Assembly (NCBI RefSeq): GCF_003014485.1
Contig: NZ_PYGA01000023.1
Coordinates: 46,160 to 110,159, forward strand
Direction: 5' to 3'
Source: Murinocardiopsis flavida
GTDB taxonomy: Bacteria; Actinomycetota; Actinomycetes; Streptosporangiales; Streptosporangiaceae
Length of the DNA stretch: 64,000 nt
Positions 13,498 through 46,776 of the stretch are shown one piece after another. Every line of letters starts with the position of its first letter. Position 1 is the stretch's first letter. Below the pieces are notes generated by a model, which did no database searches, was not told the DNA's origin, and saw only the letters and a list, made by a program, of their open reading frames with translations. The position numbers were made by a program, and so were the translations under genes.

Positions 13498-15746
13498 CCC
13501 TGGTCGACCCCGAACGCGTCCACGTCCTGGGGATACGGCACCACGGCCCCGGCTCGGCACGGGCGGTGCGCGCCGCTCTCGACACCATCCGGCCCGAAAC
13601 CGTGCTCATCGAGGGCCCGCCCGAAGCCGACGCGCTCACCGGCCTCGCCCCCGACCTCGAACCCCCGGTCGCGCTGCTCGCCTACCGGGCCGACTCCCCG
13701 GCGCAGGCGGCGTTCTGGCCGTTCGCGGCGTTCTCCCCCGAGTGGCAGGCGCTGCGCTGGGCCGCCGACAACGGTGCCGAGGCCGACTTCTGCGACCTCC
13801 CCGCGGCGCACACCCTCGCCGAGGAGGAACCGGCTGACAGCGGCCCCACCACCGGCCCCGAGGACGAGGACGACCCCGAGCGGCGCACGCGCGTCGACCC
13901 GCTCGGCGTGCTCGCCGAGGCCGCCGGGTTCGACGACCCCGAGCGGTGGTGGGAGGACGTCGTGGAGCAGCGCGACGGCGCGGGCCCGTCGCCCTTCCCC
14001 GCCATCCTCGACGCCATGAGCGCGGTGCGCGGCGAACTGGCGCCCGAACCCTGGGACGACCGCGAGGCCAGGCGCGAGGCGCACATGCGCCAGACCCTGC
14101 GCCGCGCCATGCGCGCCGGGAGCGGCCGCATCGCCGTGGTGTGCGGCGCGTGGCACGCGCCCGCGCTGCGCGACCTCCCACCGGCCGGGCACGACACCGC
14201 CCTGCTCAAGGGCCTGCCCAAGGTCAAGACCGCCACCACGTGGATCCCGTGGAGCCACGGGCGGCTCGCCGCGGGCAGCGGGTACCGGGCGGGGGTGCGC
14301 TCGCCCGGCTGGTACCACCACCTGTTCACGGCGCCCGACCGGCCGGTCGAGCGCTGGCTCACCGAGGCGGCGCGCCGCTTGCGCGGCGAGGACCAGCCGG
14401 TTTCGTCGGCGCACGTCATCGAGGCGGTGCGGCTCACAACGAGCCTCGCCGTGCTGCGCGGCCGCCCGCTGGCGGGGCTCGCCGAGGTGGCCGAGGCGAC
14501 CACCGCCGTCCTGTGCGAGGGCTCGGAGTCGCGCGCCGCCCTGGTCCACCGGTCCATGGCCATCGGTGAACGCCTGGGGGCGGTGCCCGAGAGCACGCCC
14601 ATGGTCCCGTTGCAGCGCGACCTCACCGCGCAGCAGCGCTCCCTGCGGCTCAAACCCGAGGCGCTGCGCCGCGACCTCGTCCTCGACCTGCGCAAGGACC
14701 TCGACCGCCGGCGCAGCGTCCTGCTGCACCGGCTCGCGCTGCTCGGCGTCGACTGGGGGACGCCGGAAAGCGAGGACAACCGTTCGCGCGGCACCTTCCG
14801 CGAGACGTGGTCGCTGTGCTGGGAGCCCGGCCTCGACATCACCCTCATCGAGGCGAGCGCGTGGGGCACGACGGTCGACGGCGCCGCGACCGCCCGCGCC
14901 GCCGACCGCGCGGCGCACGCCCCTCTGCCCGGCCTGACCGCCCTCACCGAGCAGTGCCTGCTCGCTGAGCTCCACGACGCCGTCCCGGCGGTGCTCGACC
15001 GCGTCGCGGCGCGCGCCGCCGAAGGCGCCGACATCGCGCACCTCATGGCGGCGCTGCCGCCGCTCGCCCGCTCCTCCCGTTACGGCAGCGTGCGGCGGCT
15101 GGACTCCGACGCGCTGCGGCGGGTGGCGGTGGAGCTGCTGCGCAGGGTCTGCGCGGGGCTCGCGCCCGCGGTCGGCGCACTGGGCGACGACGCCGCGGCC
15201 GCCATGGTCGCCGCGGTCGACGGGGTGCACACCGCTGCCGTGCAGCTGGGCGGCGCGGCCGAGGCCGAATGGCTCGACACACTCGAACGGCTCGCCGAGC
15301 GCGGCTCCGTCCCCGGGAAACTGGCGGGCCGCGTCCACCGGCTGCTGCGCGACACCGGCCGCCTCTCGGCGCCGACCCTGGCGCTGCGCCTGAGCCGCGC
15401 GACGTCGGCGGCCGTGCCGCCCGGCCGGTCCGCGGCGTGGATCGAGGGGTTCCTGTCGGGCAGCGGCCTGCTGCTGGTCCACGACACCGACCTCCTCACC
15501 CTGATCGACCGCTGGCTGTCCGGGCTGGCCCCGCAGGCGTTCACCGACGTCCTTCCGCTGCTGCGCCGCTCCTTCGGCGCCTTCCCGCAGCCCGAGCGCC
15601 GCGCCATCGGCGAGCAGGCGGCCCGCCTCGGCGACGGTGCGGCGCCGGAGCGGCCCGCCGAGCCCATCGACGCCGAGCGCGCGGCACCGGCCCTCGCCGC
15701 GGCCGCCGCCCTGCTCGGAGTGGGCGGACCGGCGGCACCGGGGTGA
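13494..15746 (+). CDS. DUF5682 family protein (uncharacterised)
   Basis: 750 aa. Its ATG overlaps the stop of the AAA gene (ATGA). The frame stays open with coherent codon usage. The family call comes from remembered synteny. Confidence 0.6.
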   Translation: MTLVDPERVHVLGIRHHGPGSARAVRAALDTIRPETVLIEGPPEADALTGLAPDLEPPVALLAYRADSPAQAAFWPFAAFSPEWQALRWAADNGAEADFCDLPAAHTLAEEEPADSGPTTGPEDEDDPERRTRVDPLGVLAEAAGFDDPERWWEDVVEQRDGAGPSPFPAILDAMSAVRGELAPEPWDDREARREAHMRQTLRRAMRAGSGRIAVVCGAWHAPALRDLPPAGHDTALLKGLPKVKTATTWIPWSHGRLAAGSGYRAGVRSPGWYHHLFTAPDRPVERWLTEAARRLRGEDQPVSSAHVIEAVRLTTSLAVLRGRPLAGLAEVAEATTAVLCEGSESRAALVHRSMAIGERLGAVPESTPMVPLQRDLTAQQRSLRLKPEALRRDLVLDLRKDLDRRRSVLLHRLALLGVDWGTPESEDNRSRGTFRETWSLCWEPGLDITLIEASAWGTTVDGAATARAADRAAHAPLPGLTALTEQCLLAELHDAVPAVLDRVAARAAEGADIAHLMAALPPLARSSRYGSVRRLDSDALRRVAVELLRRVCAGLAPAVGALGDDAAAAMVAAVDGVHTAAVQLGGAAEAEWLDTLERLAERGSVPGKLAGRVHRLLRDTGRLSAPTLALRLSRATSAAVPPGRSAAWIEGFLSGSGLLLVHDTDLLTLIDRWLSGLAPQAFTDVLPLLRRSFGAFPQPERRAIGEQAARLGDGAAPERPAEPIDAERAAPALAAAAALLGVGGPAAPG

Positions 15747-15831
15747 CCCGGCGCCCGGCCGGCCCGCGGCGCCCCGCCGCACCGGCCCCCTTCAGACGTC
15801 ACCCGGCACCGCGCAGCAGGAGGAGCACACG

Positions 15832-17049
15832 ATGACGACGGCGACGCACGACATCCCCGCAGCGGCGGCCCCCGAGGAGCGGCTGCGCCGGTGGCGGCTG
15901 GTCCTCGGCGCCGCCGCCGAGGCGGACTGCGCGGGCCTGGCCGGTGCCGACGCCGGCATGGACGCCGCCCTCGCCGCCCTCTACGACAACGGCGGGGGCG
16001 GGGGCGCCGACGACACCGGCGGGCCGCGCAGCGCCGGGCTGGGCGCGTCGGCGCCCAGGGTCGCCCGCTGGCTCGGCGACATCCGCACGTACTTCCCGTC
16101 GAGCGTGGTGCGGGTGATGCAGGCCGACGCGGTCGAGCGCCTCGGCCTGGACCGGCTGCTCCTCGAACCGGAGATGCTCGACGCCGTCGAACCCGACGTC
16201 CACCTCGTCGGCACCCTGCTGTCGCTGAACCAGGTCATGCCGCAGCGGGCCCGCGAGTCGGCGCGGGCCGTCGTCCGCGCGGTGGTCCGGGACCTGGAGC
16301 GGCGCCTCGCCCAGCGCACCCGCTCGGTGGTGCGCGGCGCGCTCGACCGGTCGGCGCGCACCCACCGCCCGCGCCGGGCCGCCGACATCGACTGGAACGG
16401 CACCATCCGCCGCAACCTCCAGCACTACCTGCCCGAGCACGGCACGATCGTGCCGCAGAACCTGGTCGGGTACGGGCGGCGCACGCACGGTGTGCAGCGG
16501 CACGTCACGCTCGCCATCGACCAGAGCGGGTCCATGGCCGAGTCGGTGGTGTACGCGAGCGTGTTCGGCGCCGTCCTCGGCTCGATGCGCACCCTGCGGA
16601 CGTCGCTCGTCGTCTTCGACACCGCAGTCGTCGACCTCACCGAGGAGCTGAGCGACCCGGTGGAGGTGCTGTTCGGCACCCAACTGGGCGGCGGGACCGA
16701 CATCAACCGCGCCATCGCCTACTGCCAGGGCCTCATCACCCGCCCGGCCGACTCCGTGTTCGTCCTGATCAGCGACTTGTACGAGGGCGGGATCCGCGAC
16801 GAGATGCTGCAACGGGTCGCGGCCATGACAGCGGCCGGCGTGCAGGTGGTGGTGCTCCTGGCGCTGTCGGACGAGGGGGCGCCGTCCTACGACCGCGACA
16901 ATGCAGCGGCGCTGGCCGCGATGGGCGTCCCGGCGTTCGCGTGCACGCCCGACGCGTTCCCCGAGCTGATGGCCGCGGCGATCCAGGGCCATTCGATGAC
17001 CGCGTGGGCCGAGCGGCGGCAGGACCACGGCGCCGACGGCGACCGGTAG
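15832..17049 (+). CDS. VWA (von Willebrand factor A) domain protein
   Basis: AGGAGG SD. The VWA MIDAS-like motif is LAIDQSGSM...GGGTDINRAI. It is the last gene of the SWIM-MoxR cluster. Confidence 0.8.
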   Translation: MTTATHDIPAAAAPEERLRRWRLVLGAAAEADCAGLAGADAGMDAALAALYDNGGGGGADDTGGPRSAGLGASAPRVARWLGDIRTYFPSSVVRVMQADAVERLGLDRLLLEPEMLDAVEPDVHLVGTLLSLNQVMPQRARESARAVVRAVVRDLERRLAQRTRSVVRGALDRSARTHRPRRAADIDWNGTIRRNLQHYLPEHGTIVPQNLVGYGRRTHGVQRHVTLAIDQSGSMAESVVYASVFGAVLGSMRTLRTSLVVFDTAVVDLTEELSDPVEVLFGTQLGGGTDINRAIAYCQGLITRPADSVFVLISDLYEGGIRDEMLQRVAAMTAAGVQVVVLLALSDEGAPSYDRDNAAALAAMGVPAFACTPDAFPELMAAAIQGHSMTAWAERRQDHGADGDR

Positions 17050-23104: not shown

Positions 23105-26038
23105 CTACTCCGCCGCCACGCACTTCCCCGTCAACGGGATCCGCTGGATGCGGTCGTCATCGGCGGCGGTCATCGCGCCGAGCGACCGGAGCGCCTCGAA
23201 CTGCTCCTGCGCATCCGCGCGGCGACCCATCGCGAGGTAGCACGTGCCCAAGCGGTCCCGAAGCTCCAGTTCCAGCCGGACGGCGGTCTGGTCGGAGATG
23301 ACGGCAAGAGCCTGATGGAAGAGCGCGATCGCGGTGTGCGGTTCGCCCAGTTCCTGCATCGCGGCGGCCAGCCGGGTCAGACTGCCGACGCGCAGCGTGA
23401 CGTCCGCGACCTGATCGGCCAGGTCGACCGCCTGCCGCAGCGCGGGCGCGGCCTCGGCCGGGCGACCGAGCTGGAGCAGAATGCTGCCGACGCTGCACAG
23501 CGCCCGCCCCACCATCGACGGGCTGCCGATCGCCTCTCCGAGCGCGCGGGAGCGGGTGAAGCAGTCGAGGGCCTCCTCGGGGCGGCCCTGGAGCAGCAGG
23601 ATGTAGCCGCGGCCGGACGTCGCCCGCTCGACGAGCCAGTCGTCGCCGAGCTCCTCGGCCAGTTCGATCACCGCGGCCAAGTCGTCCAGCACGCCGCCGT
23701 GCCGCCCTGAGGCCGCTCCGGAGATCACCAGGCCGCCGCGGGCACGGGCCTCGACCCGCCGGTCGCCCGCCGACCGGCCGCCTTCGAGGGCTGCGCTGAA
23801 CCACGTGCGGGCCTGGTCGTACCGGCCCTGCATGCCATAGGCGAAGCCCAGGCAGAAGTACAGCGAAGGGGCCATCCGGGGGTCGGCGGCATCGCCGACC
23901 CGCGACAGTGCGATCTCGACAGCGGCACGGGACTCGTGGATCCTGCCCCTGCGCACGAGGAAGTCGACCACGGCCTCGGCGATCCAGCACGCGTGGCCCA
24001 CCTGCCCGATGGCTGCGGCGTGGCCGACCACATCGGCGAAGTCGCCGGCCTTGTCGAGCCAGGCCGAGGCGTCCTCCCAACCGCGGAACGGCGCATCCCC
24101 CGGCTCCGGCCCGGTCGGGAAGCTCGCGGCGCCCCACTCGCTCGCGATCCGGCCGGCCGCGATGTAGAGCCGGAACACCCGTGCGGTGACCATTGCGCCC
24201 GCCTCCGCGGGCTCCTCGGCGGCCAGCCGGCGCGCGAACACCGCGACAAGGTCGTGCAGCCGGTACCGGTCGGCGGCCGGTTGCTGCACGAGGCTCGCGT
24301 CCACCAGTCGCTCCAAGGAGCGGTCGGCGTCGCGCGGCGGGCAGTCGAGCATCGCCGCCATCGTGAGCCGGTCGAGCTCCGGCGTGGGCGACAGGCCCAG
24401 CACGCGAAACGCCCGCTGATCGGCGTCGGGAAGCTGGTCGTAGGAGGCCCGGAACGCGGCCTCGACGCTGCGGTCCCCCGCGGTCAGGCCGCCGAGCCGT
24501 CCCTCGTCGTCGGCGAGCCGCGCCACCAGGTCCTCGAACGTCCATGCCGGACGGGTCTGGAGGCGCGCTCCGGCGATGCACAGTGCGAGCGGCAGCCGCC
24601 CGCACAGCCGGGCCAGCGCACGCACCGCGCCCGGCTCGCCGCCCGCCCGCGACGCACCGGCGATGCGGTTCAGCAGCGCCGCGGCAGCCTCGATGTGGAG
24701 CGGTTCCAACGAGACCCGGCGCTCCGCGTCCAGACCCGCCAGCCGCCGGCGGCTGGTCACCAGGACGCTGCTGCCCGCCCCGGCCGGCAGCAGCGGGCGC
24801 ACCTGCTCGGCGCTCCACGCGTCGTCGAGCACCAGCACCAGGCGGAGCGAGGCGGTGGCGGCGCGCCACGACGCCGCGAGTTCGTCGAGGTCGTCCGGGG
24901 TACCGCTGTCGTCCACGCCGACCGCCCGCAGCAGCCGACGCAGCACGCGCTCCACGGCGGGTGCCCTGCGCCCGCTGTGCCCGTGCAGATCCACGAACAG
25001 GCATCCGTCCGGGCAGTCGGCACGGAGTGTTCGCGCGGCGTTCACCGCCAGCGCGGTCTTCCCGGCTCCCGCCACCCCGTCGACCGCCGCGGTGGTCACC
25101 GCGTCGGCGGCGATCGGCGCTGCGAGCAGCGCCAGTTCCCGTTCCCGGCCGATCAGCTCGCCGATGCCGACCGGCAACTCGTCGCGCGGCCGGTCGGCCG
25201 GAACGGGGGCCGGGGGCGCACCGGCCGCCTGACTCCTGTCGGCGAGACCGAGCGACGCGTCGTCCCCGCGCAGCACCGCCTGGTGGACGCTCTGCATCTC
25301 CGCGCCGGGCTCCACCCCCAGGTCCTCGACGAGGCGGTCGCGCAGCCGGGGGAACACCCGCAGCGCGTCGGCCTGCTGCCCGCCGCCGTAACGGGCACGC
25401 ACCAGGAGGGCGGCGAGCCCTTCGGCGTGCGGGTACGCCTCGATCCACTCGGGCAGCTCGTCAACCACCTCGTCGTAGCGTCCCAGGCGGACCTGCGCGT
25501 CGAGCTTGTCCTGGAGCAGCGCGACCCGCCGCTCCGCCAGCCGGCGCCGCTCCCCTTCCGCGAACGGCCCCGGGAGTCCCGCCAGCGGCTCGCCGTCGAA
25601 CAGCGCGAGCGCGCGGGTGTACGCGCCCACCGCCGCGGCCAGGTCACCGCTCTGCCGAGCACCGCCGGCCTCGGCCGCGAGCTCGTTCAGGCGCACCGTG
25701 TCGAGCAGGGCGCCGCTGCCGACGAAGCGGTACCCGCTCCGGTCGCTGACGATCACCGACTTCGCGTCCACGCCGTTGGCCTGCAAGCACCGCCGCAGGC
25801 GGAACACGTAGCCCGGCATGTTCCGGACACCGGTGCTCGGCGGGTCCTGGCCCCACACCCGGTCGAGCAGCTGCTCCTGGCTGACGGTGACATCGGAGCG
25901 CAGCACCAGGGCCGCCAACACGGCCTGCTGGCGGACGGGGCCCACATCCAGCTCCTCGGCACCACACCAGACCCGCATCGGGCCGAGCACGGCGAACCGA
26001 ATATGCGTGGGAGAAACCGGTGTAATCCGTTCGGACAC
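23105..26038 (-). CDS. AfsR/SARP family transcriptional regulator (BTAD + NB-ARC + TPR)
   Basis: 977 aa. N-terminal OmpR-type wHTH and BTAD (FAVLGPMRVW...), Walker A GVAGAGKTALA, and C-terminal TPRs. Confidence 0.85.
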   Translation of the reverse strand: MSERITPVSPTHIRFAVLGPMRVWCGAEELDVGPVRQQAVLAALVLRSDVTVSQEQLLDRVWGQDPPSTGVRNMPGYVFRLRRCLQANGVDAKSVIVSDRSGYRFVGSGALLDTVRLNELAAEAGGARQSGDLAAAVGAYTRALALFDGEPLAGLPGPFAEGERRRLAERRVALLQDKLDAQVRLGRYDEVVDELPEWIEAYPHAEGLAALLVRARYGGGQQADALRVFPRLRDRLVEDLGVEPGAEMQSVHQAVLRGDDASLGLADRSQAAGAPPAPVPADRPRDELPVGIGELIGRERELALLAAPIAADAVTTAAVDGVAGAGKTALAVNAARTLRADCPDGCLFVDLHGHSGRRAPAVERVLRRLLRAVGVDDSGTPDDLDELAASWRAATASLRLVLVLDDAWSAEQVRPLLPAGAGSSVLVTSRRRLAGLDAERRVSLEPLHIEAAAALLNRIAGASRAGGEPGAVRALARLCGRLPLALCIAGARLQTRPAWTFEDLVARLADDEGRLGGLTAGDRSVEAAFRASYDQLPDADQRAFRVLGLSPTPELDRLTMAAMLDCPPRDADRSLERLVDASLVQQPAADRYRLHDLVAVFARRLAAEEPAEAGAMVTARVFRLYIAAGRIASEWGAASFPTGPEPGDAPFRGWEDASAWLDKAGDFADVVGHAAAIGQVGHACWIAEAVVDFLVRRGRIHESRAAVEIALSRVGDAADPRMAPSLYFCLGFAYGMQGRYDQARTWFSAALEGGRSAGDRRVEARARGGLVISGAASGRHGGVLDDLAAVIELAEELGDDWLVERATSGRGYILLLQGRPEEALDCFTRSRALGEAIGSPSMVGRALCSVGSILLQLGRPAEAAPALRQAVDLADQVADVTLRVGSLTRLAAAMQELGEPHTAIALFHQALAVISDQTAVRLELELRDRLGTCYLAMGRRADAQEQFEALRSLGAMTAADDDRIQRIPLTGKCVAAE

Positions 26039-34321: not shown

Positions 34322-35977
34322 CTACTTGCGGAAGTGGAAGATGCCCCACGCGAGGTCGCCGGAGTCGCCTCCGTTGACCCAGTTGCGCAGGCCGACCTTC
34401 ATCCGCTCCAGATACTCGGTGCTGATCTGCCCGGTGAGCTCGGCCTCCCGGGCCTCGGTCTCGGCGAGGACCCGGCCGTAGTGCCGGGGCAGCTGCGGGC
34501 TGAGGTCGTCGAACTCGACCTTGGTCAGCCCGAGCCGGCGGGCCTCCGCCTCGTAGAAGCCGGGGGTCGCCATGGTGTCGAGGTGCAGGCGCTCCAGGAT
34601 CGGGCGCAGCGCCTCGCTCGCGGCGCCGTCGGCCGCCATGGGGTCGGTGAAGACCAGCCGGCCGCCGGGGCGCAGCACCCGGACCGCCTCCTCCACCACG
34701 CGGGCGCGGTCGCCGCTGTGCAGCAGCGCGTCCTGCGACCACACGACGTCGAAGCCGTTGTCCTGGAGCGGGATCTCCTCGAACGACCCGTCGACCACGT
34801 CGATGAGGTGGTCGAGGCCCGCCGCCCGGTTCATGGCCCGGTTCCGGTCGTTCTCGACCTCACTGAGGTTGAGGCAGGTCACCCGGCACCCGTAGGTGCG
34901 GGCGAGGAACCGCGCCGAGCCCCCGTAGCCGGAGCCCAGGTCGACCACCGCGGTGTCGGGGGTGAGTTCCAGCTTGTCCGCCATGCGCTCGACCGTGCGG
35001 CGGCTCGCGTCGGCGATGTCGTCGTCGGCGGCGGTGTAGAGGCCGACGTGGATGTCGGTGCCGCCCCAGACCGAGTGGTAGAACGCGTCGGCGTCGCTGG
35101 AGTTGTAGTACTCCCGCGCGGTCTGCACCGCGGTGGAGTAGTTCTCGGCGGCGTCCTCGTCGGAGTGGTACGCCTTCTCCGCGATGTGCACGAAGAAGTC
35201 GGGCTCCTCGCCCTGGTAGGTCTCCTGGAAGTCACCGTAGGTGTTGATCCGCTGGAACCCGACCTCGCGCATGAGCCGCCGCACGTAGTTCTTGCGCAGC
35301 GGGAACATGTTGAGGTGGTACTCGGACTGGTCGGGGAACCGGTAGCGGAACCGGGCCAGGCCCTCGTCGACGTGCGCCGGCTCGGCCGACACCTCTTCAC
35401 CGCAGTAGTAGTAGGTGTGCGAGTTGCCGTAGGTGCCGTCGAGCAGGGCGTCGTAGTTGCGCTGGTCGATGATCAGCACGCCGTCGTGCTTGAGCATCGC
35501 GTAGAACTCGGCGAGGGCCTTGCGGCGGTCGCGCTCGGAGAACAGGTGGGTGAACGAGTTGCCGAGGCAGATGATGGCGTCGTAGGTGCCGTGCACGTCA
35601 CGGTTGAGCCATCTCCAGTCGGCCTGGACGACGCGGAGGATGTGCCCGCCGTACGTGAGGCCGTTGGAGAACGCTTGAGCCAGCATCTCGGGGCTGCCGT
35701 CGGCGCTGACGGTGTCGAAGCCCTCTTCAAGCAGACGCACCGAGTGGAACCCGGTGCCGGTCGCGACGTCGAGCACCTCGCGCACACCGCGTGCCTTGAG
35801 CTGCTCGATGAAGAAGCCGCCCTCGCTCGCGTAGCGCCGCTTCCAGTCGATCAGCTCGTCCCACTTCTCGACGAAGCCCGTGACATATTCGGCTTTGTAG
35901 TGGTCGGTTTCGCGAACAGCGAGCGGGTCGGTGCCAAAACCCTGCGTGTCCTGCCCTTTGATAGGTCGACTCCTCAC
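34322..35977 (-). CDS. bifunctional glycine/sarcosine N-methyltransferase + sarcosine/dimethylglycine N-methyltransferase (glycine betaine synthesis)
   Basis: 551 aa. The N-terminal GNMT-like half contains VLDVATGTGFHSVRLLEEGF, and the C-terminal SAM-MT half contains VVDLGSGYGGSARFLA. This fused two-methyltransferase architecture is the one described for the Actinopolyspora halophila betaine synthase. GTG start. Confidence 0.7.
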   Translation of the reverse strand: MRSRPIKGQDTQGFGTDPLAVRETDHYKAEYVTGFVEKWDELIDWKRRYASEGGFFIEQLKARGVREVLDVATGTGFHSVRLLEEGFDTVSADGSPEMLAQAFSNGLTYGGHILRVVQADWRWLNRDVHGTYDAIICLGNSFTHLFSERDRRKALAEFYAMLKHDGVLIIDQRNYDALLDGTYGNSHTYYYCGEEVSAEPAHVDEGLARFRYRFPDQSEYHLNMFPLRKNYVRRLMREVGFQRINTYGDFQETYQGEEPDFFVHIAEKAYHSDEDAAENYSTAVQTAREYYNSSDADAFYHSVWGGTDIHVGLYTAADDDIADASRRTVERMADKLELTPDTAVVDLGSGYGGSARFLARTYGCRVTCLNLSEVENDRNRAMNRAAGLDHLIDVVDGSFEEIPLQDNGFDVVWSQDALLHSGDRARVVEEAVRVLRPGGRLVFTDPMAADGAASEALRPILERLHLDTMATPGFYEAEARRLGLTKVEFDDLSPQLPRHYGRVLAETEAREAELTGQISTEYLERMKVGLRNWVNGGDSGDLAWGIFHFRK

Positions 35978-37396: not shown

Positions 37397-37885
37397 GTGC
37401 GGTATCCCCGTTTTATCAGCGATCTTGCCTGGCCAACGAACTGCATACCACAGCTGGTTCCCCGGATCCGGGCACGACTGGCGGCACCGGCCGATGTGCC
37501 GCGCCAGCGCGCGCACGGCGCGGCACGAGCGGTCCGGAACGCGCGCCGATTCCCATCCGAAAACCCCGGCATTCCGCTGCCGCGCGGGAACCCCGCCCGG
37601 CACCGCTGCGTCGGAGGAATGCAGTGCACAGACGGGGCCCCGCCCCGTAGGGCGGCGGTACCGCGCGACAGCCGGCACCACCGCCCGAACCGTCCCGATT
37701 CTCAGCGTCTTCCAAGGTGAATGGCCGATGACGGACAAAACGTGGCAGACAATGGGGGAGCACCGTAACGTTTCCCGCCAGCACGGTGGTCGTCCCCCGA
37801 AGCCTGCGCGCCGTGTCCCATCGCGGCGGCCGCACGGCCGCGCGACCGCACCGTTCACCCGCGGGTGGAGAGGACCTCACCGCCG

Positions 37886-38515
37886 ATGGGCGCGTTCGTT
37901 CAGGCAGCGCTGGGTTTCCCGACCGTATTGTTCACGTTCTCACTGGTGGTGGTCGTTGCTTACTGGGTTCTCGTGCTGGTCGGCGGCGCCGAGGTCGACA
38001 TGCTCGACGGCGACGTCCCCGACTCGGGGGGCGCCATCGGACTGCTGGGCGGCATCGGCCTCGGCGGTGTTCCCGGCACGGTCTCGGTGTCGCTGGTGAT
38101 CGCGGTCGCCTGGTTCCTCAGCCTCTCCGGCGCGTCGCTCGCCACGGGGTGGGGCCTGTCGCCCACCTGGCTCATCGTGATCCTGGTCGGCGTCCTCGCC
38201 CTGGCGCTCATGGGCGCCTGGCTGGTCACGGCCTTCATCGTCATGGGACTGCGCAAGGCCCTGCCCGACGCCCGCGAGTCCTCCCTGCACGACTTCGTCG
38301 GCCGCACCTGCACCATCCGCACCGGCAAGGTGACCATGGACTTCGGGCAGGCCGAAGCCGCGTCGGAGGACGGATCCACCTCGGTGATCCAGGTCCGCCA
38401 GCACGGCGACGACCCGCTCACCGCCGGCAGTACCGCACTCGTCTACGCCTACGACGACGCCGGAGAGTTCTTCTGGGTGTCGGCGTTCGACCCCGCGCTC
38501 GACCCGAACCGCTGA
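37886..38515 (+). CDS. NfeD family membrane protein (YuaF/YqiJ-like), flotillin partner
   Basis: N-terminal TM helices and a C-terminal OB-fold-like soluble domain (GRTCTIRTGKVTMDFGQAEA...). It sits immediately upstream of the flotillin gene. Alternative start GTG 37865. Confidence 0.7.
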   Translation: MGAFVQAALGFPTVLFTFSLVVVVAYWVLVLVGGAEVDMLDGDVPDSGGAIGLLGGIGLGGVPGTVSVSLVIAVAWFLSLSGASLATGWGLSPTWLIVILVGVLALALMGAWLVTAFIVMGLRKALPDARESSLHDFVGRTCTIRTGKVTMDFGQAEAASEDGSTSVIQVRQHGDDPLTAGSTALVYAYDDAGEFFWVSAFDPALDPNR

Positions 38516-38620
38516 CAGCGGACCCCGCACCACACCGGCCCCGCGCACAGCCGCGGCGCCGGCGAGCACCGCACGTCCCCGCCTGCCGCCGCAGGCACCC
38601 CCCGACCTAAGGACTTATCG

Positions 38621-40723
38621 ATGGATGTGATCTCCGCGGGCTTCGGCATTCTGATCGCCGTCGTCCTCGTCATCGTTCTGGGGCTGGTGATCGTCGTCAG
38701 CCGGCTCTTCCGCAAGGTCGAGCAGGGCAAGGCCCTGATCGTCTCCAAGACGAACCGGGTCGACGTCACCTTCACCGGCATGGTCGTCCTGCCGGTGCTG
38801 CACCGCGCCGAGATCATGGACATCTCGGTGAAGACGATCGAGATCGAGCGGACCGGCAAGGAGGGGCTGATCTGCTCCGACAACATCCGCGCCGACATCC
38901 GCATCTCGTTCTTCGTGCGGGTGAACAACCAGCGCGAGTCCGTCATCAAGGTGGCCCAGTCCATCGGCACCGAGCGCGCCAGCAACCAGGACACCCTCCA
39001 GGAGCTGTTCAACGCCAAGTTCTCCGAGGCGCTGAAGACCGTCGGCAAGCAGCTCCAGTTCGAGGACCTGTACACCCAGCGCGACGAGTTCCGCGACCGC
39101 ATCATCCAGATGATCGGCGTGGACCTCAACGGCTACCAGCTCGAAGACGCGGCGATCGACTTCCTGGAGCAGACCCCGCTGCACAGCCTGGACGAGAACA
39201 ACATCCTCGACGCCCAGGGCATCCGCAAGATCACCGAGCTCACCGCCGTGCAGAGCATCCACACCAACGAGCACGCGCGCAACAAGGAGAAGGAGATCGA
39301 GCGGCAGAACGTCGAGGCGCGCGAGGCGATCCTCGAACTGGAGCGGCGCCGCGAGGAGGCCGAGGCCAAGCAGCAGCGCGAGGTCGAGACCCTGCGGGCG
39401 CGCGAGGAGGCCGAGACCGCACGGGTGCGCTCCGAGGAGCTGCTGAAGTCCGAGACCGCACGCGTGCGCACCGATGAGCAGGTCGGCGTGCAGCAGCAGA
39501 ACCGCGACCGGGAGATCGCGGTGGCGCAGAAGAACCGCGAGCGGGTCATCGCCATCGAGACCGAGCGCATCGAGAAGGACCGGATGCTGGAGGTCATCGG
39601 CCGCGAGCGCGAGACCGAGCTGTCCCGCATCTCCAAGGACAAGGAGCTGGAGGGCGAGCGGCGCGAGATCGCCGAGTCCATCCGCGAGCGCATCGCCGTC
39701 GACAAGACCGTCGCCGAGCAGGAAGAGGCCATCAAGAAGCTGCGGACGGTCGAGGAGGCCGAGCGCACCCGCCAGGCCATCATCATCCAGGCCGAGGCCG
39801 AGGCGCAGGAGGCCCTGGTCAAGGACATCAAGGCCGCCGAGGCCGCCGAGCAGGCGTCCGCGCACAAGGCCCGCGAGGAGCTGCGGCTCGCCGAGACCCG
39901 GCAGCAGACCGCCGAGCTCGACACCCAGGCCGCCATCCGCCTCGCCGAGGGCAAGCAGGCCGACGCCGCCGCCGAAGGGCTCGCGAAGGCCCAGGTGCTG
40001 GAGCGCGAGGCCGCGGCGCTGGAGAAGCAGGGCCGCGCCGAAGCGGTCGTGGAACGCGAGAAGGGCGTCGCGACCGCCGAGGCGCTCGACAAGCACGGCC
40101 GCGCCGAGGCCGCGGTGAGCCGCGAGAAGGCGCTCGCCGACGCCGAGGGCATCCGCGAGAAGCTCAAGGCCGAGGCCGAGGGCATCAACGACAAGGCCGA
40201 GGCCATCGCGGCGCTCGACGAGGCGGGACGCGGGCACGAGGAGTACCGCCTGCGGCTCGACGCCGAGAAGGAGATCCGGCTCGCCGGCATCACCGTGCAG
40301 AAGGACGTCGCCGAGGCGCAGGCCGCCGTGCTGTCCACCGGCCTCCAGTCCGCCGACATCGACATCGTGGGCGGCGACGGCGCGTTCTTCGAGCGGCTCA
40401 CCGGCTCCATCGGCATGGGCAAGGCCGTCGACGGGTTCATGCAGAACTCCCAGGTCGCGCAGACCCTCGCCGGGCCGTGGCTGGACGGTTCCGCCGACTT
40501 CACCAACGACCTGTCCCGGCTGGTCGGCTCGGTGCGCACCGAGGACGTCAAGAACGTCACCCTGTCGGCGCTGCTCATGAAGCTGATCAACAATGGCGGC
40601 GCCGAAGAGGGCAAGCTCCGCGAGCTGCTGAGCACCGCGAACCGGCTCGGTGTGGCCGACTCGCCCGTGTCGGCCCTCACCGGCCCCCGCCTGAACTCCG
40701 CCGAGACGACCGCGAAGGCGTGA
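38621..40723 (+). CDS. flotillin (SPFH/band-7 family, FloT/YqiK-like)
   Basis: AAGGAC SD. N-terminal TM helix, an SPFH domain, and a long EA-repeat coiled coil (EAEAKQQREVETLRAREEAE...). Confidence 0.85.
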   Translation: MDVISAGFGILIAVVLVIVLGLVIVVSRLFRKVEQGKALIVSKTNRVDVTFTGMVVLPVLHRAEIMDISVKTIEIERTGKEGLICSDNIRADIRISFFVRVNNQRESVIKVAQSIGTERASNQDTLQELFNAKFSEALKTVGKQLQFEDLYTQRDEFRDRIIQMIGVDLNGYQLEDAAIDFLEQTPLHSLDENNILDAQGIRKITELTAVQSIHTNEHARNKEKEIERQNVEAREAILELERRREEAEAKQQREVETLRAREEAETARVRSEELLKSETARVRTDEQVGVQQQNRDREIAVAQKNRERVIAIETERIEKDRMLEVIGRERETELSRISKDKELEGERREIAESIRERIAVDKTVAEQEEAIKKLRTVEEAERTRQAIIIQAEAEAQEALVKDIKAAEAAEQASAHKAREELRLAETRQQTAELDTQAAIRLAEGKQADAAAEGLAKAQVLEREAAALEKQGRAEAVVEREKGVATAEALDKHGRAEAAVSREKALADAEGIREKLKAEAEGINDKAEAIAALDEAGRGHEEYRLRLDAEKEIRLAGITVQKDVAEAQAAVLSTGLQSADIDIVGGDGAFFERLTGSIGMGKAVDGFMQNSQVAQTLAGPWLDGSADFTNDLSRLVGSVRTEDVKNVTLSALLMKLINNGGAEEGKLRELLSTANRLGVADSPVSALTGPRLNSAETTAKA

Positions 40724-40730
40724 CGCAGAC

Positions 40731-43700
40731 GTGACCGACACCGTCGAAACTGCCGCCTCGGCACCTGCCGAGCCGAACGGGGCCGCACCCGGTCCGGACG
40801 CGCCCGGGCCCGACGGTCCCGCCGCCCGCGCCGGGTCGGCCCCCGAAGGGCTCGACCAGGGGACCTACGAGGTCCTGCGGACCCGGTTGGCGGGGCAGGC
40901 CGCCGATCTCGCCCGCCGGGCCGAATCGCTCAACGCCCGGCGGCTGGCGGTCTTCGGCGGTGCCGAGCTGCGTCTCACCGGGACCGAGCGGATCCGCACG
41001 GGGCACAACTGCGTGCCCCGCGACATCGTGCCCGTCGGCGACCTCATGCTCTTCGGGTACAACGTCTTCATCGGGCTGAAGCAGGAGACGACCGTCGCCG
41101 ACGTCTTCTCGCTGCACCGCTTCACCCCGCCGGACCCCGCAGCGGAGCCCGGCGGGCAGCCCCCGTTCACCGAGGCCGGGCCGGGCGAACTGCCCGGCCT
41201 CCTGGACGACGCCCAGTTCCGGCGCGACTTCGCCGAGCTGTACCGCTACTACCGCGACACCCGCCTGCTGCAACTGCGCCGGGTCGGCCCGAAGCTCCTC
41301 GCCGTGTTCCAGACCGGCGAACGCACCGAGGACATCCGGGTCCTCCGCTGGCAGGTCGAGAACGACGGCGGCGTTCGCTACCTCGACGGCCGCGGCGAAC
41401 GCGACCACGTGTTCCCGGCGCAGCAGGACTTCGAATGGGTCGAGACGACCCGGGAGCAGCACGTCCTGGGCCGCCACCCGCACATCTCCATCCTCGACCA
41501 GGTGTTCGTGGAGACGGTCGGCGGCGACCTCACCATCAAGGTCGAGAACAACACCGAGTCCGGCGCGGGCATCTACAGCGAACCCGTCGACGAACCGCTC
41601 CAGAGCCTCGCCGACGCCGAGGTCCACTACGCCGAGGTCGGCGCGCTCGTCCTGCTGCGGGTGCTGCCGTACAAGGAGACGGAGTGGCGGCACCTGGTGT
41701 TCAACACCAGGACCAGGGACGTCGTCCGCCTCGACGGCATCGGCCGGGCGTGCCGGCGGCTGCCCGAGGACCAGGGGCTGATCTTCCCCGGCGGCACCTA
41801 CCTCGCCACCGGCATCGCCCGGACCTTCGACACCGACGTCACCGACCTGGAGTTCGAGCGGTTCGTCCGGTCGCCCAACGGCGAGGACGTCCTCTACGTC
41901 TTCCATTCGCGCGGCGAAGGGCGGTCGCTGCTGCTGCCCTACAACGTGATCCGCAAGGAGGTCGCCGCCCCGATCGTCTGCCACGGGTTCAGCGTGTTCG
42001 ACGACGGCACGCTCGTGGTGTTCCGCGCCGACTCCGACGAGCCGACGCGGGTGCACCCCATGCAGGTGTGGCAGACCCCGTTCTGCACCGACGACCACGC
42101 CGCCGCGCAGCCCGTCGGAACCGGGCCGCTGGAGCGCATCGGCAACGCCGAGCTGGTCCGCGGCGTCTCCGAGTGCCTTTCGGTCGCGCGGATGATCGAG
42201 GAGATGGCGCCGTCGGCCGAGGTGTTCGAGGCGCTCATCGCCGCCGCCAAGCGCACGGCCGACACCTACCACTGGCTGGGCGAGGACGAACTCGACCGGC
42301 CCGGCGAACCCCTCGCGGGCGTCCGGGGCACCGCCGAGCAGGTCCTGGACGAGTTCGAGAAGGTCCAGGCCCTCACCGCCCAGGCGGCCGACGCGCTCGC
42401 CGAGGCCGAGGCGGCGGCGCTGACCCTCATCCGGCGCACCCGCGGCGAGGCGCCCCAGGGCGCCGACGGCTGGGTCGGCAGGCTCGCGGAGCTGCGCCGA
42501 TCCCAGGGCCACCTCGTCACCCTGCGCGAGATGCGCTACGTCGACACCGCGCGCATCGACGCGCTCGACCGCAAGCTCGCGGAGCAGCTCGACTCCGCCG
42601 GGCGGCGCGCCGTGGAGTTCCTGCGCGGCGACGACGCCTTCGCGGGGTACCACGGCGACGTCGCCGCGCTGGTCGCCGAGGCCGAGTCGATCGCGAGCGT
42701 CGCCGACGCCGGACCCGTCACCGACCGGTTGGCCGAGCGCTCCGACGCACTGGAGATCGTCACCGAGGTGGTGGGCTCCCTCGACATCGGCGACGCAACG
42801 GTGCGCACCACCATCCTGGAGCGCATCGGCGAGGTGCTGGGCGGCGTGAACCGCGCCCGCGCGACCCTCGCCGCGCGCCGCACGGAGCTGCTCGCCACCG
42901 AGGGGCGCGCGGAGTTCGCCGCGGAGTTCGCCCTGTTCGGGCAGGCCGTCACCGGCGCGCTCGCCGTCGCCGACACCCCCGAGCGCTGCGACGACCAGCT
43001 CGGCCGGCTGCTGCTGCAACTGGAGAACCTGGAGTCGCGGTTCGGCGAGTTCGACGACTTCCTCACCGAGCTGGGCGACAAGCGCGAGGAGGTCTACGAG
43101 GCGTTCTCGGCGCGCAAGCAGGCCCTGCTGGACGAGCGGAGCCGCCGCGCCGACCGGCTCGTGGAGTCCGCCGAGCGCATCCTGGCGAGCGTGCAGCGGC
43201 GGGTGGCCGCGCTCGGCTCCATCGACGAGGTGAACACCTACTTCGCGTCCGACCCCATGATCGCCCGGCTGCGCTCCACGGCCGAGGAGCTGCGCTCCCT
43301 CGGCGACCAGGTGCGCGCGGAGGAGGTCGACGGCCGGGTGAAGGCCGCCCGGCAGGAGGCCGGGCGGTCGCTGCGCGACCGGCTCGACCTGTACGCCGAC
43401 GGCGGCGAGACCATCAAGCTGGGGCACCACCGGTTCGCCGTCAACACCCAGCCCGTGGACCTGACCCTCGTCCCCAACGGCGAGACCATGGCGTTCGCCA
43501 TCACCGGCACCGACTTCCGGGCGCCCGTCCAGGACCCGGAGTTCGACGCGACCCGCCCGTTCTGGCAGCAGCTGCTGCCGTCGGAGACCCCTGACGTCTA
43601 CCGGGCGGAGCACCTGGCCGCGGCGATCCTCTCCGGCGCCGAGTCCGACGGCACCGGGCCCTCGCTGGCGGAGCTGCACGCCGCGGCGGAGCGCGACACA

Positions 43701-45878
43701 GCGGCGGCGGAGACCGGCGGCACCGGGCAGGACCTGCTCGGCCTGGTGCGCGGCGTCGCCGAGGCCCGCTACGACGAGGGCTACGAGCGCGGCGTCCACG
43801 ACCACGACGCCGCGGCGATCCTCGCGGCCCTGCTGCGCCTGCACTCCGCCGCGGGGCTGCTGCGCTACCCGTCGGCCGCGCGTGCGGCCGCCCTGCTGTT
43901 CTGGACGTTCGGCACCGGTGCCGACGCCGGTAGCGGTACCGGCGCCGAGCGGACCGGGTGGACCGCGCGCGCCCGCTCGCTGGCGCGCGCCCGCGCGGCG
44001 TTCGGACGCTCCCCCGCCATCGGCGCGTTCACCGCCGAACTCGCCGACGCGATCGGCGGCTTCCTCGACGCGGAACTGCCCGGCACCGGACTCGCGGACG
44101 ACGCACCCGTCCGGCGGCTCGCGGGCGAGTACCTGTTCGAGGAGCTCGCCACCGCCGCACCCGGGGCGCCGGTGGAGTTCGTCGTCAGCGGACGGGCGCG
44201 GGACCTCCTCCAGCGCTTCGGCCGGGCCCTCGACGGCTCGCGGTCGGCGTCGCGCGGCGACTTCGACGCCGACCTCGCCGGGCTCGGCGACCGCGTCCTC
44301 GACCGGCACCAGCTCGTGTCGGCGTGGATCGGGTCGTTCCTGGAGTCGTCCGCCGACGACGACGCGGCGGCGTTCGCGGCCGACGTCCCCGAGGCGGTCG
44401 CCGTGGAGCTGTGCGGCGGCGACCTCGCCGCCCGCGACTCCTCGGCCGAGCTCACCGCGACCGTCACGGGGCTGCTCGGCGCCCACCCGCGCCTCGACGG
44501 GCGCGGCCTGCACGTGCGCCTGGACGAGCTGCTCACCCGTACCCGCCGGTTCCGCGACGAGCGGGTGCCCGGCTTCCGCGCGTTCCAGAAGCGCCGCAAC
44601 GCCCTTGTCGCCGCCGAACGCGACCGGCTGCGGCTCGCCGAGTACACGCCGAAGGTCATGAGCGGGTTCGTGCGCAACCAGTTGCTGGACGACGTGTACC
44701 TGCCGCTCATCGGTGACAACCTCGCCAAGCAGCTCGGGGCGGCCGGCGACGCCAAGCGCACCGACCAGATGGGCCTGCTGCTGCTGATCTCGCCGCCCGG
44801 GTACGGCAAGACCACACTCATGGAGTACGTCGCGAGCCGGTTGGGCCTGGTGTTCGTCAAGGTCAACGGCCCATCGCTGGGGCACGACGTCACATCGGTC
44901 GACCCGGCCGACGCGCCCAACGCCACTGCGCGGCAGGAGGTCGAGAAGATCTCGTTCGCCCTGGAGGCCGGCAACAACGTCCTGCTGTACCTGGACGACA
45001 TCCAGCACACCTCGCCGGAACTGCTCCAGAAGTTCATCTCGCTGTGCGACGCCCAGCGCCGCATGGAGGGTGTGTGGAACGGGCGGACCCGCACCTACGA
45101 CATGCGCGGCAAGCGGTTCGCCATGTGCATGGCCGGCAACCCCTACACCGAGTCGGGGCAGCGCTTCCGCGTCCCCGACATGCTCGCCAACCGCGCCGAC
45201 GTGTGGAACCTGGGCGACGTCCTGTCGGGCCGCGAGGAGCAGTTCGCACTCAGCTACATCGAGAACGCGCTCACGTCCAACCCCGTGCTTGCGCCGCTGT
45301 CGTCCCGCGACCGGGACGACGTGCGGCTGCTGGTCCGCCTGGCGCGCGGCGACTCCGGCGTGCGCGCCGACCAGCTGGCGCACCCTTACTCTTCGGTGGA
45401 GCTCGACCAGGTCCTCGCTGTGCTCCGCAAGCTGCTGCGCGCCCAAGAGGTGGTGCTCGCCAACAACCAGGCGTACATCGCCTCGGCCGCGCAGGCGGAC
45501 GCCTCGCGCACCGAGCCCCCGTTCCAGTTGCAGGGCTCCTACCGGAACATGAACAAGCTCGCGGAGCGGATCGTGCCGGTCATGAACGACGCCGAACTCG
45601 AAGCGGTCATCGACGACCACTACGTGGGCGAGGCGCAGACCCTCACGACGGGGGCAGAGTCCAACCTGCTGAAACTCGCGGAACTGCGCGGCGTGCTGAC
45701 CCCCGAGCAGCGGCAGCGGTGGGACGACGTGAAGGCGGGCCACCTCCGGGCGCGGGCGCTCGGCGGCAGCGAGGGCGACCCGATGAGCCGGGCCGTCGGC
45801 GCGGTCGGCCTCCTCGCCGACCGCGTGGCCGCAGTGGAGACAGCCATCGACCGAGCCTCGACCCGCCGGGAGAAGTAA
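40731..45878 (+). CDS. very large (1715 aa) protein with C-terminal AAA+ (AAA_5/MoxR-like) ATPase domain
   Basis: GTG start 7 nt after the flotillin stop. The roughly 1300-aa N-terminal region has no motif I recognise. The C-terminus has Walker A SPPGYGKTTL, Walker B VLLYLDDIQ and a sensor region MCMAGNPYTESGQRFRVPDMLANR. Confidence 0.7.
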   Translation: MTDTVETAASAPAEPNGAAPGPDAPGPDGPAARAGSAPEGLDQGTYEVLRTRLAGQAADLARRAESLNARRLAVFGGAELRLTGTERIRTGHNCVPRDIVPVGDLMLFGYNVFIGLKQETTVADVFSLHRFTPPDPAAEPGGQPPFTEAGPGELPGLLDDAQFRRDFAELYRYYRDTRLLQLRRVGPKLLAVFQTGERTEDIRVLRWQVENDGGVRYLDGRGERDHVFPAQQDFEWVETTREQHVLGRHPHISILDQVFVETVGGDLTIKVENNTESGAGIYSEPVDEPLQSLADAEVHYAEVGALVLLRVLPYKETEWRHLVFNTRTRDVVRLDGIGRACRRLPEDQGLIFPGGTYLATGIARTFDTDVTDLEFERFVRSPNGEDVLYVFHSRGEGRSLLLPYNVIRKEVAAPIVCHGFSVFDDGTLVVFRADSDEPTRVHPMQVWQTPFCTDDHAAAQPVGTGPLERIGNAELVRGVSECLSVARMIEEMAPSAEVFEALIAAAKRTADTYHWLGEDELDRPGEPLAGVRGTAEQVLDEFEKVQALTAQAADALAEAEAAALTLIRRTRGEAPQGADGWVGRLAELRRSQGHLVTLREMRYVDTARIDALDRKLAEQLDSAGRRAVEFLRGDDAFAGYHGDVAALVAEAESIASVADAGPVTDRLAERSDALEIVTEVVGSLDIGDATVRTTILERIGEVLGGVNRARATLAARRTELLATEGRAEFAAEFALFGQAVTGALAVADTPERCDDQLGRLLLQLENLESRFGEFDDFLTELGDKREEVYEAFSARKQALLDERSRRADRLVESAERILASVQRRVAALGSIDEVNTYFASDPMIARLRSTAEELRSLGDQVRAEEVDGRVKAARQEAGRSLRDRLDLYADGGETIKLGHHRFAVNTQPVDLTLVPNGETMAFAITGTDFRAPVQDPEFDATRPFWQQLLPSETPDVYRAEHLAAAILSGAESDGTGPSLAELHAAAERDTAAAETGGTGQDLLGLVRGVAEARYDEGYERGVHDHDAAAILAALLRLHSAAGLLRYPSAARAAALLFWTFGTGADAGSGTGAERTGWTARARSLARARAAFGRSPAIGAFTAELADAIGGFLDAELPGTGLADDAPVRRLAGEYLFEELATAAPGAPVEFVVSGRARDLLQRFGRALDGSRSASRGDFDADLAGLGDRVLDRHQLVSAWIGSFLESSADDDAAAFAADVPEAVAVELCGGDLAARDSSAELTATVTGLLGAHPRLDGRGLHVRLDELLTRTRRFRDERVPGFRAFQKRRNALVAAERDRLRLAEYTPKVMSGFVRNQLLDDVYLPLIGDNLAKQLGAAGDAKRTDQMGLLLLISPPGYGKTTLMEYVASRLGLVFVKVNGPSLGHDVTSVDPADAPNATARQEVEKISFALEAGNNVLLYLDDIQHTSPELLQKFISLCDAQRRMEGVWNGRTRTYDMRGKRFAMCMAGNPYTESGQRFRVPDMLANRADVWNLGDVLSGREEQFALSYIENALTSNPVLAPLSSRDRDDVRLLVRLARGDSGVRADQLAHPYSSVELDQVLAVLRKLLRAQEVVLANNQAYIASAAQADASRTEPPFQLQGSYRNMNKLAERIVPVMNDAELEAVIDDHYVGEAQTLTTGAESNLLKLAELRGVLTPEQRQRWDDVKAGHLRARALGGSEGDPMSRAVGAVGLLADRVAAVETAIDRASTRREK

Positions 45879-45884
45879 CCCACC

Positions 45885-45927
45885 CGTGCGCGGCACGGAG
45901 CGGCCCCGCAGCAATGTGCCGCGCACG
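45885..45927. terminator. hairpin (12-bp stem cgtgcgcggcac / gtgccgcgcacg, 19-nt loop) between convergent genes
   Basis: Seen directly in the sequence, 7 nt after the stop of the 1715-aa gene. Confidence 0.35.
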
Positions 45928-45955: not shown

Positions 45956-46244
45956 TCACTCGTCACGCTCGACGGGCCAGTACTGCACACGCAGGACGAA
46001 AACAATGCCGAAGCGTCGCTGCTCCATGAACCAGACGATGAGGCGTCCCTCCGCGTGGTCGAGCACCGGCGATAGGCCCGCTTCTGCAACGGGTGGCTCA
46101 CCTATGTACTTGACCGATGTACTTGACCGACGCGGCGTCAGCGAGGCTCTGTGCCAGACGCTCGACATCGACCTTCACCTGAGGTTCGAGCCCGCCCACG
46201 ACGTTCTCCGCGTCGGGCAGGAACTCCCAGGTCCAGTCGTTCAT
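45956..46244 (-). pseudogene. type II TA toxin (RelE/ParE-like fold, inferred) disrupted by a 13-bp tandem duplication
   Basis: Two overlapping minus-strand ORFs (46098..46460 and 45956..46168) share the peptide SVKYIG. Removing one copy of the duplicated 13-mer (46104-46116 equals 46117-46129) restores a single 91-aa ORF: MNDWTWEF...SVKYIGEPPVAEAG...RLIVWFMEQRRFGIVFVLRVQYWPVERDE. Its ATG overlaps the upstream gene's stop (ATGA). Confidence 0.5.
46104..46129. repeat. perfect 13-bp tandem duplication (atgtacttgaccg x2) inside the toxin gene
   Basis: Seen directly in the sequence. It causes a +13 frameshift that introduces a stop. Confidence 0.85.
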
Positions 46245-46591
46245 GCGACGGCCTCGCGCATTGCTTCGTCGAGCAGTGCGGCGATCTCCTCCGACTTGGC
46301 GCGGGCGGTGGCGACGTCCGCTGCCTGAGCCGCGGCGTGTTCGAGTTCGCGGAGCCGACGGGCCCGAACCGGGTGGCGGCGCAGCGCGACGAACACGGCC
46401 CACCGATCCAGGAATGTGTGCATGGGCACCGTGCTGTCGGTCTGTACCGCTTCTTGCCATGCGGCGTGGAACTCCGTCTCGAAACGGACCGCCGCAGTCA
46501 AGTCCAGACGCTTCACGGCCACCCGGAGCGCCTGTTCGGTCACCGGTGGCATAGGGAACAGCGGCTCGTCGTGGTCGACCGGCTGAGACAT
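46241..46591 (-). CDS. putative antitoxin (small helical protein) of the TA pair
   Basis: 116 aa. Its stop overlaps the toxin ATG. Small palindromes (acgacgatagtcgt and tgactgcgtca) lie in its promoter region at 46600-46660. Confidence 0.45.
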   Translation of the reverse strand: MSQPVDHDEPLFPMPPVTEQALRVAVKRLDLTAAVRFETEFHAAWQEAVQTDSTVPMHTFLDRWAVFVALRRHPVRARRLRELEHAAAQAADVATARAKSEEIAALLDEAMREAVA

Positions 46592-46776
46592 GCGGCCCCC
46601 TCGGCTCTCCCGTCCAATGAGCACGACGATAGTCGTTGACTGCGTCAGTTTGACACAGCCCAACCGGCGCCTCCGTGGGCCGCGGAACGACAACGGCCGC
46701 CGTCCGCCCTCGTCAGGGCGGGCGGCGGCCGGTTCGTGCGGTGCGCGGCCGCTGGGTGCGGCCGGGCGGGTGCGTC

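Follow-up and report, generated by a model that had tools for sequence, protein, structure and literature searches.

A 64-kb window of Murinocardiopsis flavida (the whole stretch of DNA analysed here, with a G+C content of 72%) carries, at positions 37886-45878, genes for a small membrane protein, a flotillin-type SPFH protein and a giant soluble ATPase. Judging from gene order and conservation, the triad is probably one co-inherited sub-membrane module, and probably co-transcribed. For the ATPase we lean, by a little more than an even chance, towards a role as an ATP-driven remodeller of flotillin/PspA assemblies beneath the membrane. The three genes are as follows.

37886-38515, plus strand: small membrane-protein gene (YqiJ/DUF1449-like, 209 aa), ATG start at 37886 with a ribosome-binding site, G+C content at third codon positions (GC3) 0.91
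38621-40723, plus strand: flotillin-type SPFH gene (700 aa), ATG start at 38621, TGA stop at 40721-40723
40731-45878, plus strand: giant soluble ATPase gene (1715 aa), GTG start, GC3 0.96 throughout

Long open reading frames (ORFs) lie on both strands of the locus, and the three plus-strand ones are coding genes, placed where an earlier note on this DNA had put them. Their frames have the GC3 signature of high-GC coding sequence (0.91 at 37865-38515, 0.97 at 38621-40723 and 0.96 at 40731-45878), and in the giant ORF GC3 is uniform along the length in 300-nt steps. The antisense ORFs at 40677-45926 and 38615-40741 (both minus strand) were ruled out as genes by GC3 and are artefacts of the 72% G+C content. 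The sequence GGAGAGGA stands directly 5' of the ATG at 37886. Between the flotillin and giant genes the DNA reads TGA-CGCAGAC-GTG, leaving a gap of 7 nt before GTG 40731, just as the earlier note had it. That note had also named a terminator and an independent promoter between 40723 and 40731 as features that would speak against its reading; a sequence scan detected neither there, nor any terminator-like or sigma-70-like site between 37500 and 45900. Upstream, the triad is bordered by a LytR-CpsA-Psr gene in divergent orientation; the genes downstream lie on the minus strand and converge with it.

Conservation of the flotillin-ATPase adjacency

The giant ATPase belongs to a sizeable family. 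Clustered at 50% identity, the matches to its N-terminal region come to 933 representatives, and full-length proteins measure 1600-2000 aa. Among 185,579 species genomes (one genome per species), at least 588 encode a member, many of them from Streptomyces. Gene order was compared in the 80 best loci of these at least 588, plus Hoyosella, and counts were limited to loci with more than about 400 bp of upstream DNA. In each of the 77 loci with enough upstream DNA, a set that includes Myxococcota, one Clostridia metagenome-assembled genome (MAG) and proteobacterial MAGs, a flotillin homologue on the same strand immediately precedes the giant gene. The same arrangement is found in five additional loci (L082, L083, L084, L086 and L087) whose giant proteins are 28-50% identical to that of the window, which makes 82 of 82 and extends the adjacency from Actinomycetota to Gammaproteobacteria. 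Even the most distant branch, 28-36% identical to the window giant and including Simiduia, Psychrobacter and a metagenome contig of 24% G+C, has kept the triad. The spacing between the flotillin and giant genes ranges from a 4-nt overlap, which is frequent, to about 260 nt. The earlier note had proposed the ATPase as a candidate flotillin partner and had set conservation of this adjacency beforehand as the test; the proposal is supported by these loci.

The small gene is less constant. Of the 77 loci with a flotillin, 61 gave a match to it, and in several Streptomyces loci the match covers only its N-terminal part. In one Streptomyces-type locus that was inspected directly (L053), the YqiJ-like gene is absent and a divergent gene for a PucR-like regulator abuts the flotillin gene. 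Since the small gene is missing or reduced at some loci, we regard flotillin plus ATPase as the invariant core of the module.

No universal fourth gene was found in the loci compared, only lineage-specific neighbours (the PucR-like regulator, a channel-like protein, DedA and PspA clusters). In about 20 loci of the Streptomyces type (such as L053, 6437-7869) the PucR-like gene is divergent and stands about 170-330 nt 5' of the module, and its product is a candidate for a dedicated regulator of the module. In about seven loci a membrane protein of about 666 aa is encoded some 31 nt 3' of the giant gene, and in Hoyosella (L001, 12988-13608) a VTT/DedA-family membrane protein, a membrane-homeostasis neighbour, follows it by 26 nt. 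The triad of L084 (4277-11950) lies on a contig of 24% G+C, compared with 72% here, and the module thus spans very different genomes.

The distribution of the family bears on a different explanation, in which the locus would be an anti-phage or conflict system whose MoxR-type ATPase, with a propeller as its sensor, controls a membrane-perturbing flotillin/YqiJ effector and so brings about abortive infection. Actinobacteria and myxobacteria are enriched in conflict systems centred on MoxR, some of which contain beta-propellers (PMC7159879), and the module is patchy across phyla and present on some megaplasmids, such as pQBR103. However, only 13 of 72,556 plasmid records carry the family, and these are mostly megaplasmids or chromids. 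Of the five actinomycete chromosomes among the matches that are complete, four have the locus in a mid-chromosome position, and its neighbours are housekeeping genes. Between actinomycete orders the giant protein retains about 70% identity along 1700 aa, a degree of conservation unusual in defence genes, and Pfam detects no vWA, protease or nuclease effector in the triad. PADLOC 2.0 returned only weak matches in the P-loop region (mad8 and IetA, at E>0.001), and the assignment to a defence system was rejected for want of a meaningful match. We consider a conflict role improbable.

The YqiJ-like protein and the flotillin

The small protein has three hydrophobic, transmembrane-like segments followed by basic residues, an acidic loop and a soluble, beta-rich C-terminal domain, and its C-terminal motif FVGRxCxIRT...FGQAE...QVR...YD is conserved in the family alignment. 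The earlier note had described the first two genes as an NfeD-flotillin pair, and for the small protein this did not hold as far as the Pfam family is concerned. Pfam NfeD (PF01957) gave no match at E<=10 for the protein of the window and none at E<=1 among 15 members of its family; it is carried by 0 of 120 listed relatives, and a profile of the family matched nothing in the PDB, including any NfeD chain. An NfeD assignment was rejected, there being no match in Pfam, NCBIfam or the PDB. A weak match to Escherichia coli YqiJ was obtained with hhalign (P=44.7%, E=2.3e-4, 127 co-linear columns), one family member matches YqiJ_N at E=0.15, PF21001 is found in one relative, and the names given by UniRef and NCBI to the protein and its relatives are DUF1449 family, YqiJ family and OB-fold-containing. 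By these matches the protein is probably YqiJ/DUF1449-like, and NfeD-like in a broad sense only. The label 'NfeD' is tolerable in that sense alone: Pfam NfeD finds no match, but Hinderhofer et al. (2009, PMC2636767) count YqiJ and YuaF as structural homologues of NfeD that pair with flotillins of the SPFH2 type.

A divergent metagenomic version of the locus (L087, 5706-15100) has the order flotillin, NfeD1b_N-containing gene and giant gene (split in two calls), which places a long, Pfam-recognisable NfeD within the module. A protein that joins NfeD1b_N to DUF3686 (P0177) was considered as a Rosetta-stone fusion and is probably an artefact, because frame breaks occur in the contig, which was assembled from long reads at 5x.

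The flotillin half of the pair stood. The 700-aa protein has an N-terminal transmembrane region (one such segment within aa 1-34, followed by RLFRK), a Band_7 domain (aa 32-236; 31 bits against a Pfam cut-off of 23.6), a long coiled coil rich in E, A and R, and a C-terminal region. In BLASTP it is 27% identical to E. coli YqiK over 428 aa (E=5e-34), and column conservation across 75 loci is 0.8-0.9 over most of its length. Its score against the NCBIfam equivalog for FloT (NF058507) is 20.5 bits, far below the cut-off of 700, so it is no FloT orthologue; we classify it, from these comparisons, as an SPFH protein of the YqiK type.

Architecture of the giant ATPase

The giant protein is a 100% match to a public M. 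flavida protein (P0001), where it is named 'MoxR-like ATPase', and it has no transmembrane-like segment. The N-terminal stretch of about 1300 residues, which the earlier note had called unrecognisable, does match known families over much of its length: Pfam matches aa 59-514 to DUF3686 (E=2.8e-218) and aa 635-719 to DUF7902 (E=1e-29), two families that have no assigned function. The C-terminal ATPase of AAA_5/MoxR type, with GYGKTT and a DD Walker B, was read correctly, as Pfam AAA, AAA_5 and AAA_22 match aa 1346-1473 and the motifs are invariant. Two AlphaFold2 models, built on 51-sequence alignments (pLDDT, the predicted local distance difference test, 82.6 for aa 1-1000; pLDDT 89 and predicted TM-score (pTM) 0.80 for aa 881-1715), predict the domains listed here together with the sequence motifs.

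aa 1-42: disordered tail in the model
40905-42272, plus strand: DUF3686 region (aa 59-514), with a helix (aa 45-75) packed on the beta-domain
aa ~80-450: divergent, about 7-bladed beta-propeller-like domain of about 27 strands
42126-43391, plus strand: helical rod of long 3-4-helix bundles (aa 466-887)
42633-42887, plus strand: DUF7902 (aa 635-719), inside the helical rod
43410-43535, plus strand: small beta domain (aa 894-935), with strands in both models and invariant G898 and F902
43593-44630, plus strand: second helical domain (aa 955-1300)
43776-43811, plus strand: invariant motif EGYxxGVHDxDA (aa 1016-1027), in the second helical domain
44748-45230, plus strand: AAA+ alpha/beta core (aa 1340-1500)
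44790-44816, plus strand: Walker A, SPPGYGKTT (aa 1354-1362)
44868-44936, plus strand: conserved 23-residue insert between beta2 and alpha2 (aa 1380-1402), modelled as a loop
44979-45008, plus strand: Walker B, LYLDD (D1422 D1423)
45057-45104, plus strand: pre-sensor-1 beta-hairpin, present in the model
within the AAA+ core, plus strand: sensor-1 N1470
45174-45200, plus strand: PDMLANR (R1488), Arg-finger-like, ahead of strand 5
45231-45875, plus strand: AAA+ lid and C-terminal helical extension (aa 1501-1715)
aa 1601-1607: invariant QGSYRNM, candidate sensor 2

Conservation is highest in the ATPase region and lowest at aa 1050-1300. Walker A, the Walker B (which is DD, not DE), N1470, R1488 and QGSYRNM are invariant family-wide, in sets of 17 and 51 diverse homologues. 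The nearest fold neighbours of the AAA+ domain are CbbQ (score 12.5), NorQ (12.1), dynein (11.7-10.4) and midasin (10.9), followed by Rix7 (10.5) and Lon (10.0); in the model, its fold is thus closest to MoxR, dynein and midasin modules, by a modest margin. A beta-hairpin insert in helix 2 is the defining feature of the MoxR class, and a co-chaperone with a vWA domain is the usual MoxR partner (PMC7159879). No peptidase family matches the giant protein in Pfam or NCBIfam.

This anatomy can be set against the name by which the family is mostly known. In most of the public records seen the family members are labelled 'DNA repair ATPase', and the adjacency to a flotillin would then be fortuitous. 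That explanation draws on names only, namely the text 'ATPase involved in DNA repair' that Pfam gives for DUF3686 and the product name used by NCBI, which probably arose from coiled-coil similarity to clusters of orthologous groups (COGs) of the SbcC type. Domain searches of the protein gave nothing of DNA-binding, nuclease or SMC/ABC type, its ATPase is an AAA+ of the MoxR/dynein class, and its scores with RuvB models are 19-20 bits where the cut-offs are 282-299. The flotillin is an obligate neighbour, repair genes are not linked to the module, and the literature searches returned nothing in support of the name. We give a repair role hardly any credence.

The N-terminal part raises a more serious possibility. 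The models and fold searches support an architecture of propeller plus rod, in which the predicted propeller is divergent, with low TM-scores. Whole-chain Foldseek matches are to proteins built from a propeller and a helical leg (clathrin heavy chain, IFT-A, Vps11 and Elp1), and the rod resembles spectrin and talin. The giant protein could on these grounds be a structural coat or lattice that polymerises with the flotillin, its AAA+ domain with the invariant DD Walker B acting only as a nucleotide-dependent switch of assembly. However, the TM-scores of the whole-chain matches are very low (0.07-0.14), the helical matches are generic, and the AAA+ domain is better conserved than any other part of the protein, with its sensor-1, Arg-finger-like and sensor-2-like residues retained, suggesting that it is a working enzyme. 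We hold a purely structural role to be rather unlikely.

Other genes of the window are listed for completeness. Convergent with the giant gene, an ORF at 46777 to about 47400 (minus strand) encodes, in its C-terminal part, a signal peptide, a long proline-rich (PD/PPD)n repeat and LPVTG followed by a transmembrane segment and RRRQSA; its product is an LPXTG sortase-anchored surface protein. Just 3' of the giant gene, at 46098-46693 (minus strand), two small overlapping ORFs encode a helical protein of about 115 aa starting MSQPVDHDEPLF and a short protein with the C-terminal end ...VKYIGQVHR, and may form a toxin-antitoxin-like pair. An AfsR/SARP-type regulator (Trans_reg_C, BTAD, NB-ARC and TPR; 23105-26038, minus strand) and a 551-aa protein with two methyltransferase domains (34322-35977, minus strand) are unrelated to the triad. 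At 13494-17049 (plus strand) a DUF5682 gene (E=2e-270) is followed by one for a VWA_CoxE protein, with additional plus-strand ORFs at 9164-12385. These genes are probably part of a MoxR/AAA_5-DUF5682-vWA cluster, which may be what the earlier note had counted as the other MoxR-class ATPase in the window.

Possible function and comparison with known systems

An operon type that combines CesT/Tir-PspA, a flotillin/Band-7 protein, a beta-propeller-AAA+ protein and a 3-transmembrane protein of YqiJ/YuaF type has been described in silico and proposed as a partner of PspA/CesT-Tir envelope-stress systems, and abbreviated operons that lack PspA are more widespread and may cooperate with a PspA from another locus (Ravi et al. 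2024, mSystems, PMC11237479). The locus in M. flavida has all three of the other components, with the same architectures. Given that the module had already been reported in silico, the locus is an ordinary member of a known operon type, and because the CesT/Tir-PspA dyad of the full form is absent beside the triad, it represents the abbreviated form; a Simiduia PspA query found no PspA in the 64-kb window. The account by Ravi et al. takes up two sentences, without a name, an assignment to an AAA+ clade or experiments. What is new here is that the ATPase was never seen without a flotillin, that it is of the MoxR/dynein class by fold, and that some Streptomyces loci have only a reduced YqiJ-like gene or none at all.

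The PspA-linked forms are instructive. In Simiduia, DUF2170 (YjfI) and PspA/IM30 precede the triad on the same strand, and on pQBR103 the triad comes after genes for PspA, a rhomboid, DUF2491, DUF350, DUF1190 and a glutathionylspermidine-synthase-like protein; the complete form, linked to CesT/Tir-PspA, recurs at L082 and L086. Links between SPFH proteins and PspA are also noted in Bacillus subtilis (PMC8581546).

We suspect that the YqiJ-like protein, with its three transmembrane segments and putative OB-type domain, and the YqiK-type flotillin lie on the cytoplasmic side of the membrane and are served there by the soluble 190-kDa ATPase. The C-terminal MoxR/dynein-class AAA+ domains would probably form a hexameric ring, each subunit of which projects a helical rod tipped by the beta-propeller-like binding domain. 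The propeller or rod may dock on the flotillin oligomer itself, or on clients and PspA-type polymers gathered there, and ATP binding and hydrolysis could then assemble, remodel or disassemble these sub-membrane complexes in envelope stress, possibly together with PspA. The logic would be analogous to that of MoxR-adaptor chaperones, Vps4/ESCRT-III and HflK/C-FtsH.

Several lines of evidence support such a remodelling role: the co-inheritance of the genes (flotillin and giant pairwise identities correlate at r=0.92) and their tight coupling, the cytoplasm-facing topology of all three products, the intact motifs and the MoxR/dynein-like fold. It is also backed by the triads fused on the same strand to PspA/IM30, together with DUF2170 or yjfKLMC-type genes, in Simiduia and on pQBR103, and Ravi et al. 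arrived at the same reading from context. Some observations weigh on the other side. PspA adjoins the triad in only 2 of about 87 loci. Pfam finds no vWA domain in the triad, and no extra neighbour gene is conserved. The DD Walker B may favour slow, switch-like hydrolysis instead of a motor, and the co-variation of the adjacent genes is partly shared phylogeny. In the literature we found nothing on DUF3686 and no experimental data for any member of the family; searches on DUF3686/PF12458/DUF7902, on the 'DNA repair ATPase' name with flotillin, on MoxR with SPFH and on SPFH with anti-phage systems gave nothing relevant, and a separate one led to the phage-shock-protein (PSP) paper of Ravi et al.

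In its most specific form the proposal is tentative, and we would sooner expect it to fail than to hold: the giant protein would be a dedicated, energy-consuming partner of flotillins, a hexameric, MoxR/dynein-like ring that would use six arms with propellers at their tips to hold flotillin cages of the YqiK type, as well as any PspA polymers, so as to assemble, open or recycle them upon membrane damage. If true, it would be a bacterial counterpart, for flotillins, of Vps4/ESCRT-III or FtsH/HflKC, and would offer a biochemical handle on a debated function. The function of flotillins in bacteria is still under debate, and an ATPase strictly linked to them makes the question experimentally tractable. 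The association itself had already been reported by comparative genomics (Ravi et al. 2024), and the value of the present analysis lies in its confirmation, in a sharper anatomy and in the correction of a public annotation that masks the link to the membrane.

The first two genes have parallels elsewhere. E. coli yqiJ-yqiK and B. subtilis yuaF-floT show the same order, a small protein with three transmembrane segments (and an OB-fold, putative in the protein of the window) followed by a flotillin (PMC2636767), but these operons have no ATPase gene, and the flotillin of the window is 150 aa longer. The pairing of an SPFH scaffold with an AAA+ machine at the membrane is likewise seen in HflK/C-FtsH and in prohibitin with the m-AAA protease (PMC13220708). 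Unlike FtsH, the ATPase described here has neither a protease domain nor a transmembrane segment, is cytoplasmic with a huge propeller/rod extension, and belongs to another clade (MoxR/dynein-like as opposed to the classical clade of FtsH). Compared with the MoxR chaperones CbbQ-CbbO, NorQ-NorD and RavA-ViaA, the triad lacks a vWA partner, its ATPase has a DD Walker B and a helix-2 insert that does not form a hairpin in the model, and the AAA+ domain is fused to about 1300 aa of propeller, rod and helical domains. With Vps4/ESCRT-III, to which PspA and Vipp1 are related as ESCRT-III relatives, the module would share the logic of a soluble AAA+ protein with an N-terminal adaptor that acts on a membrane-bound polymer, and it is in the gammaproteobacterial versions of the module that PspA is linked.

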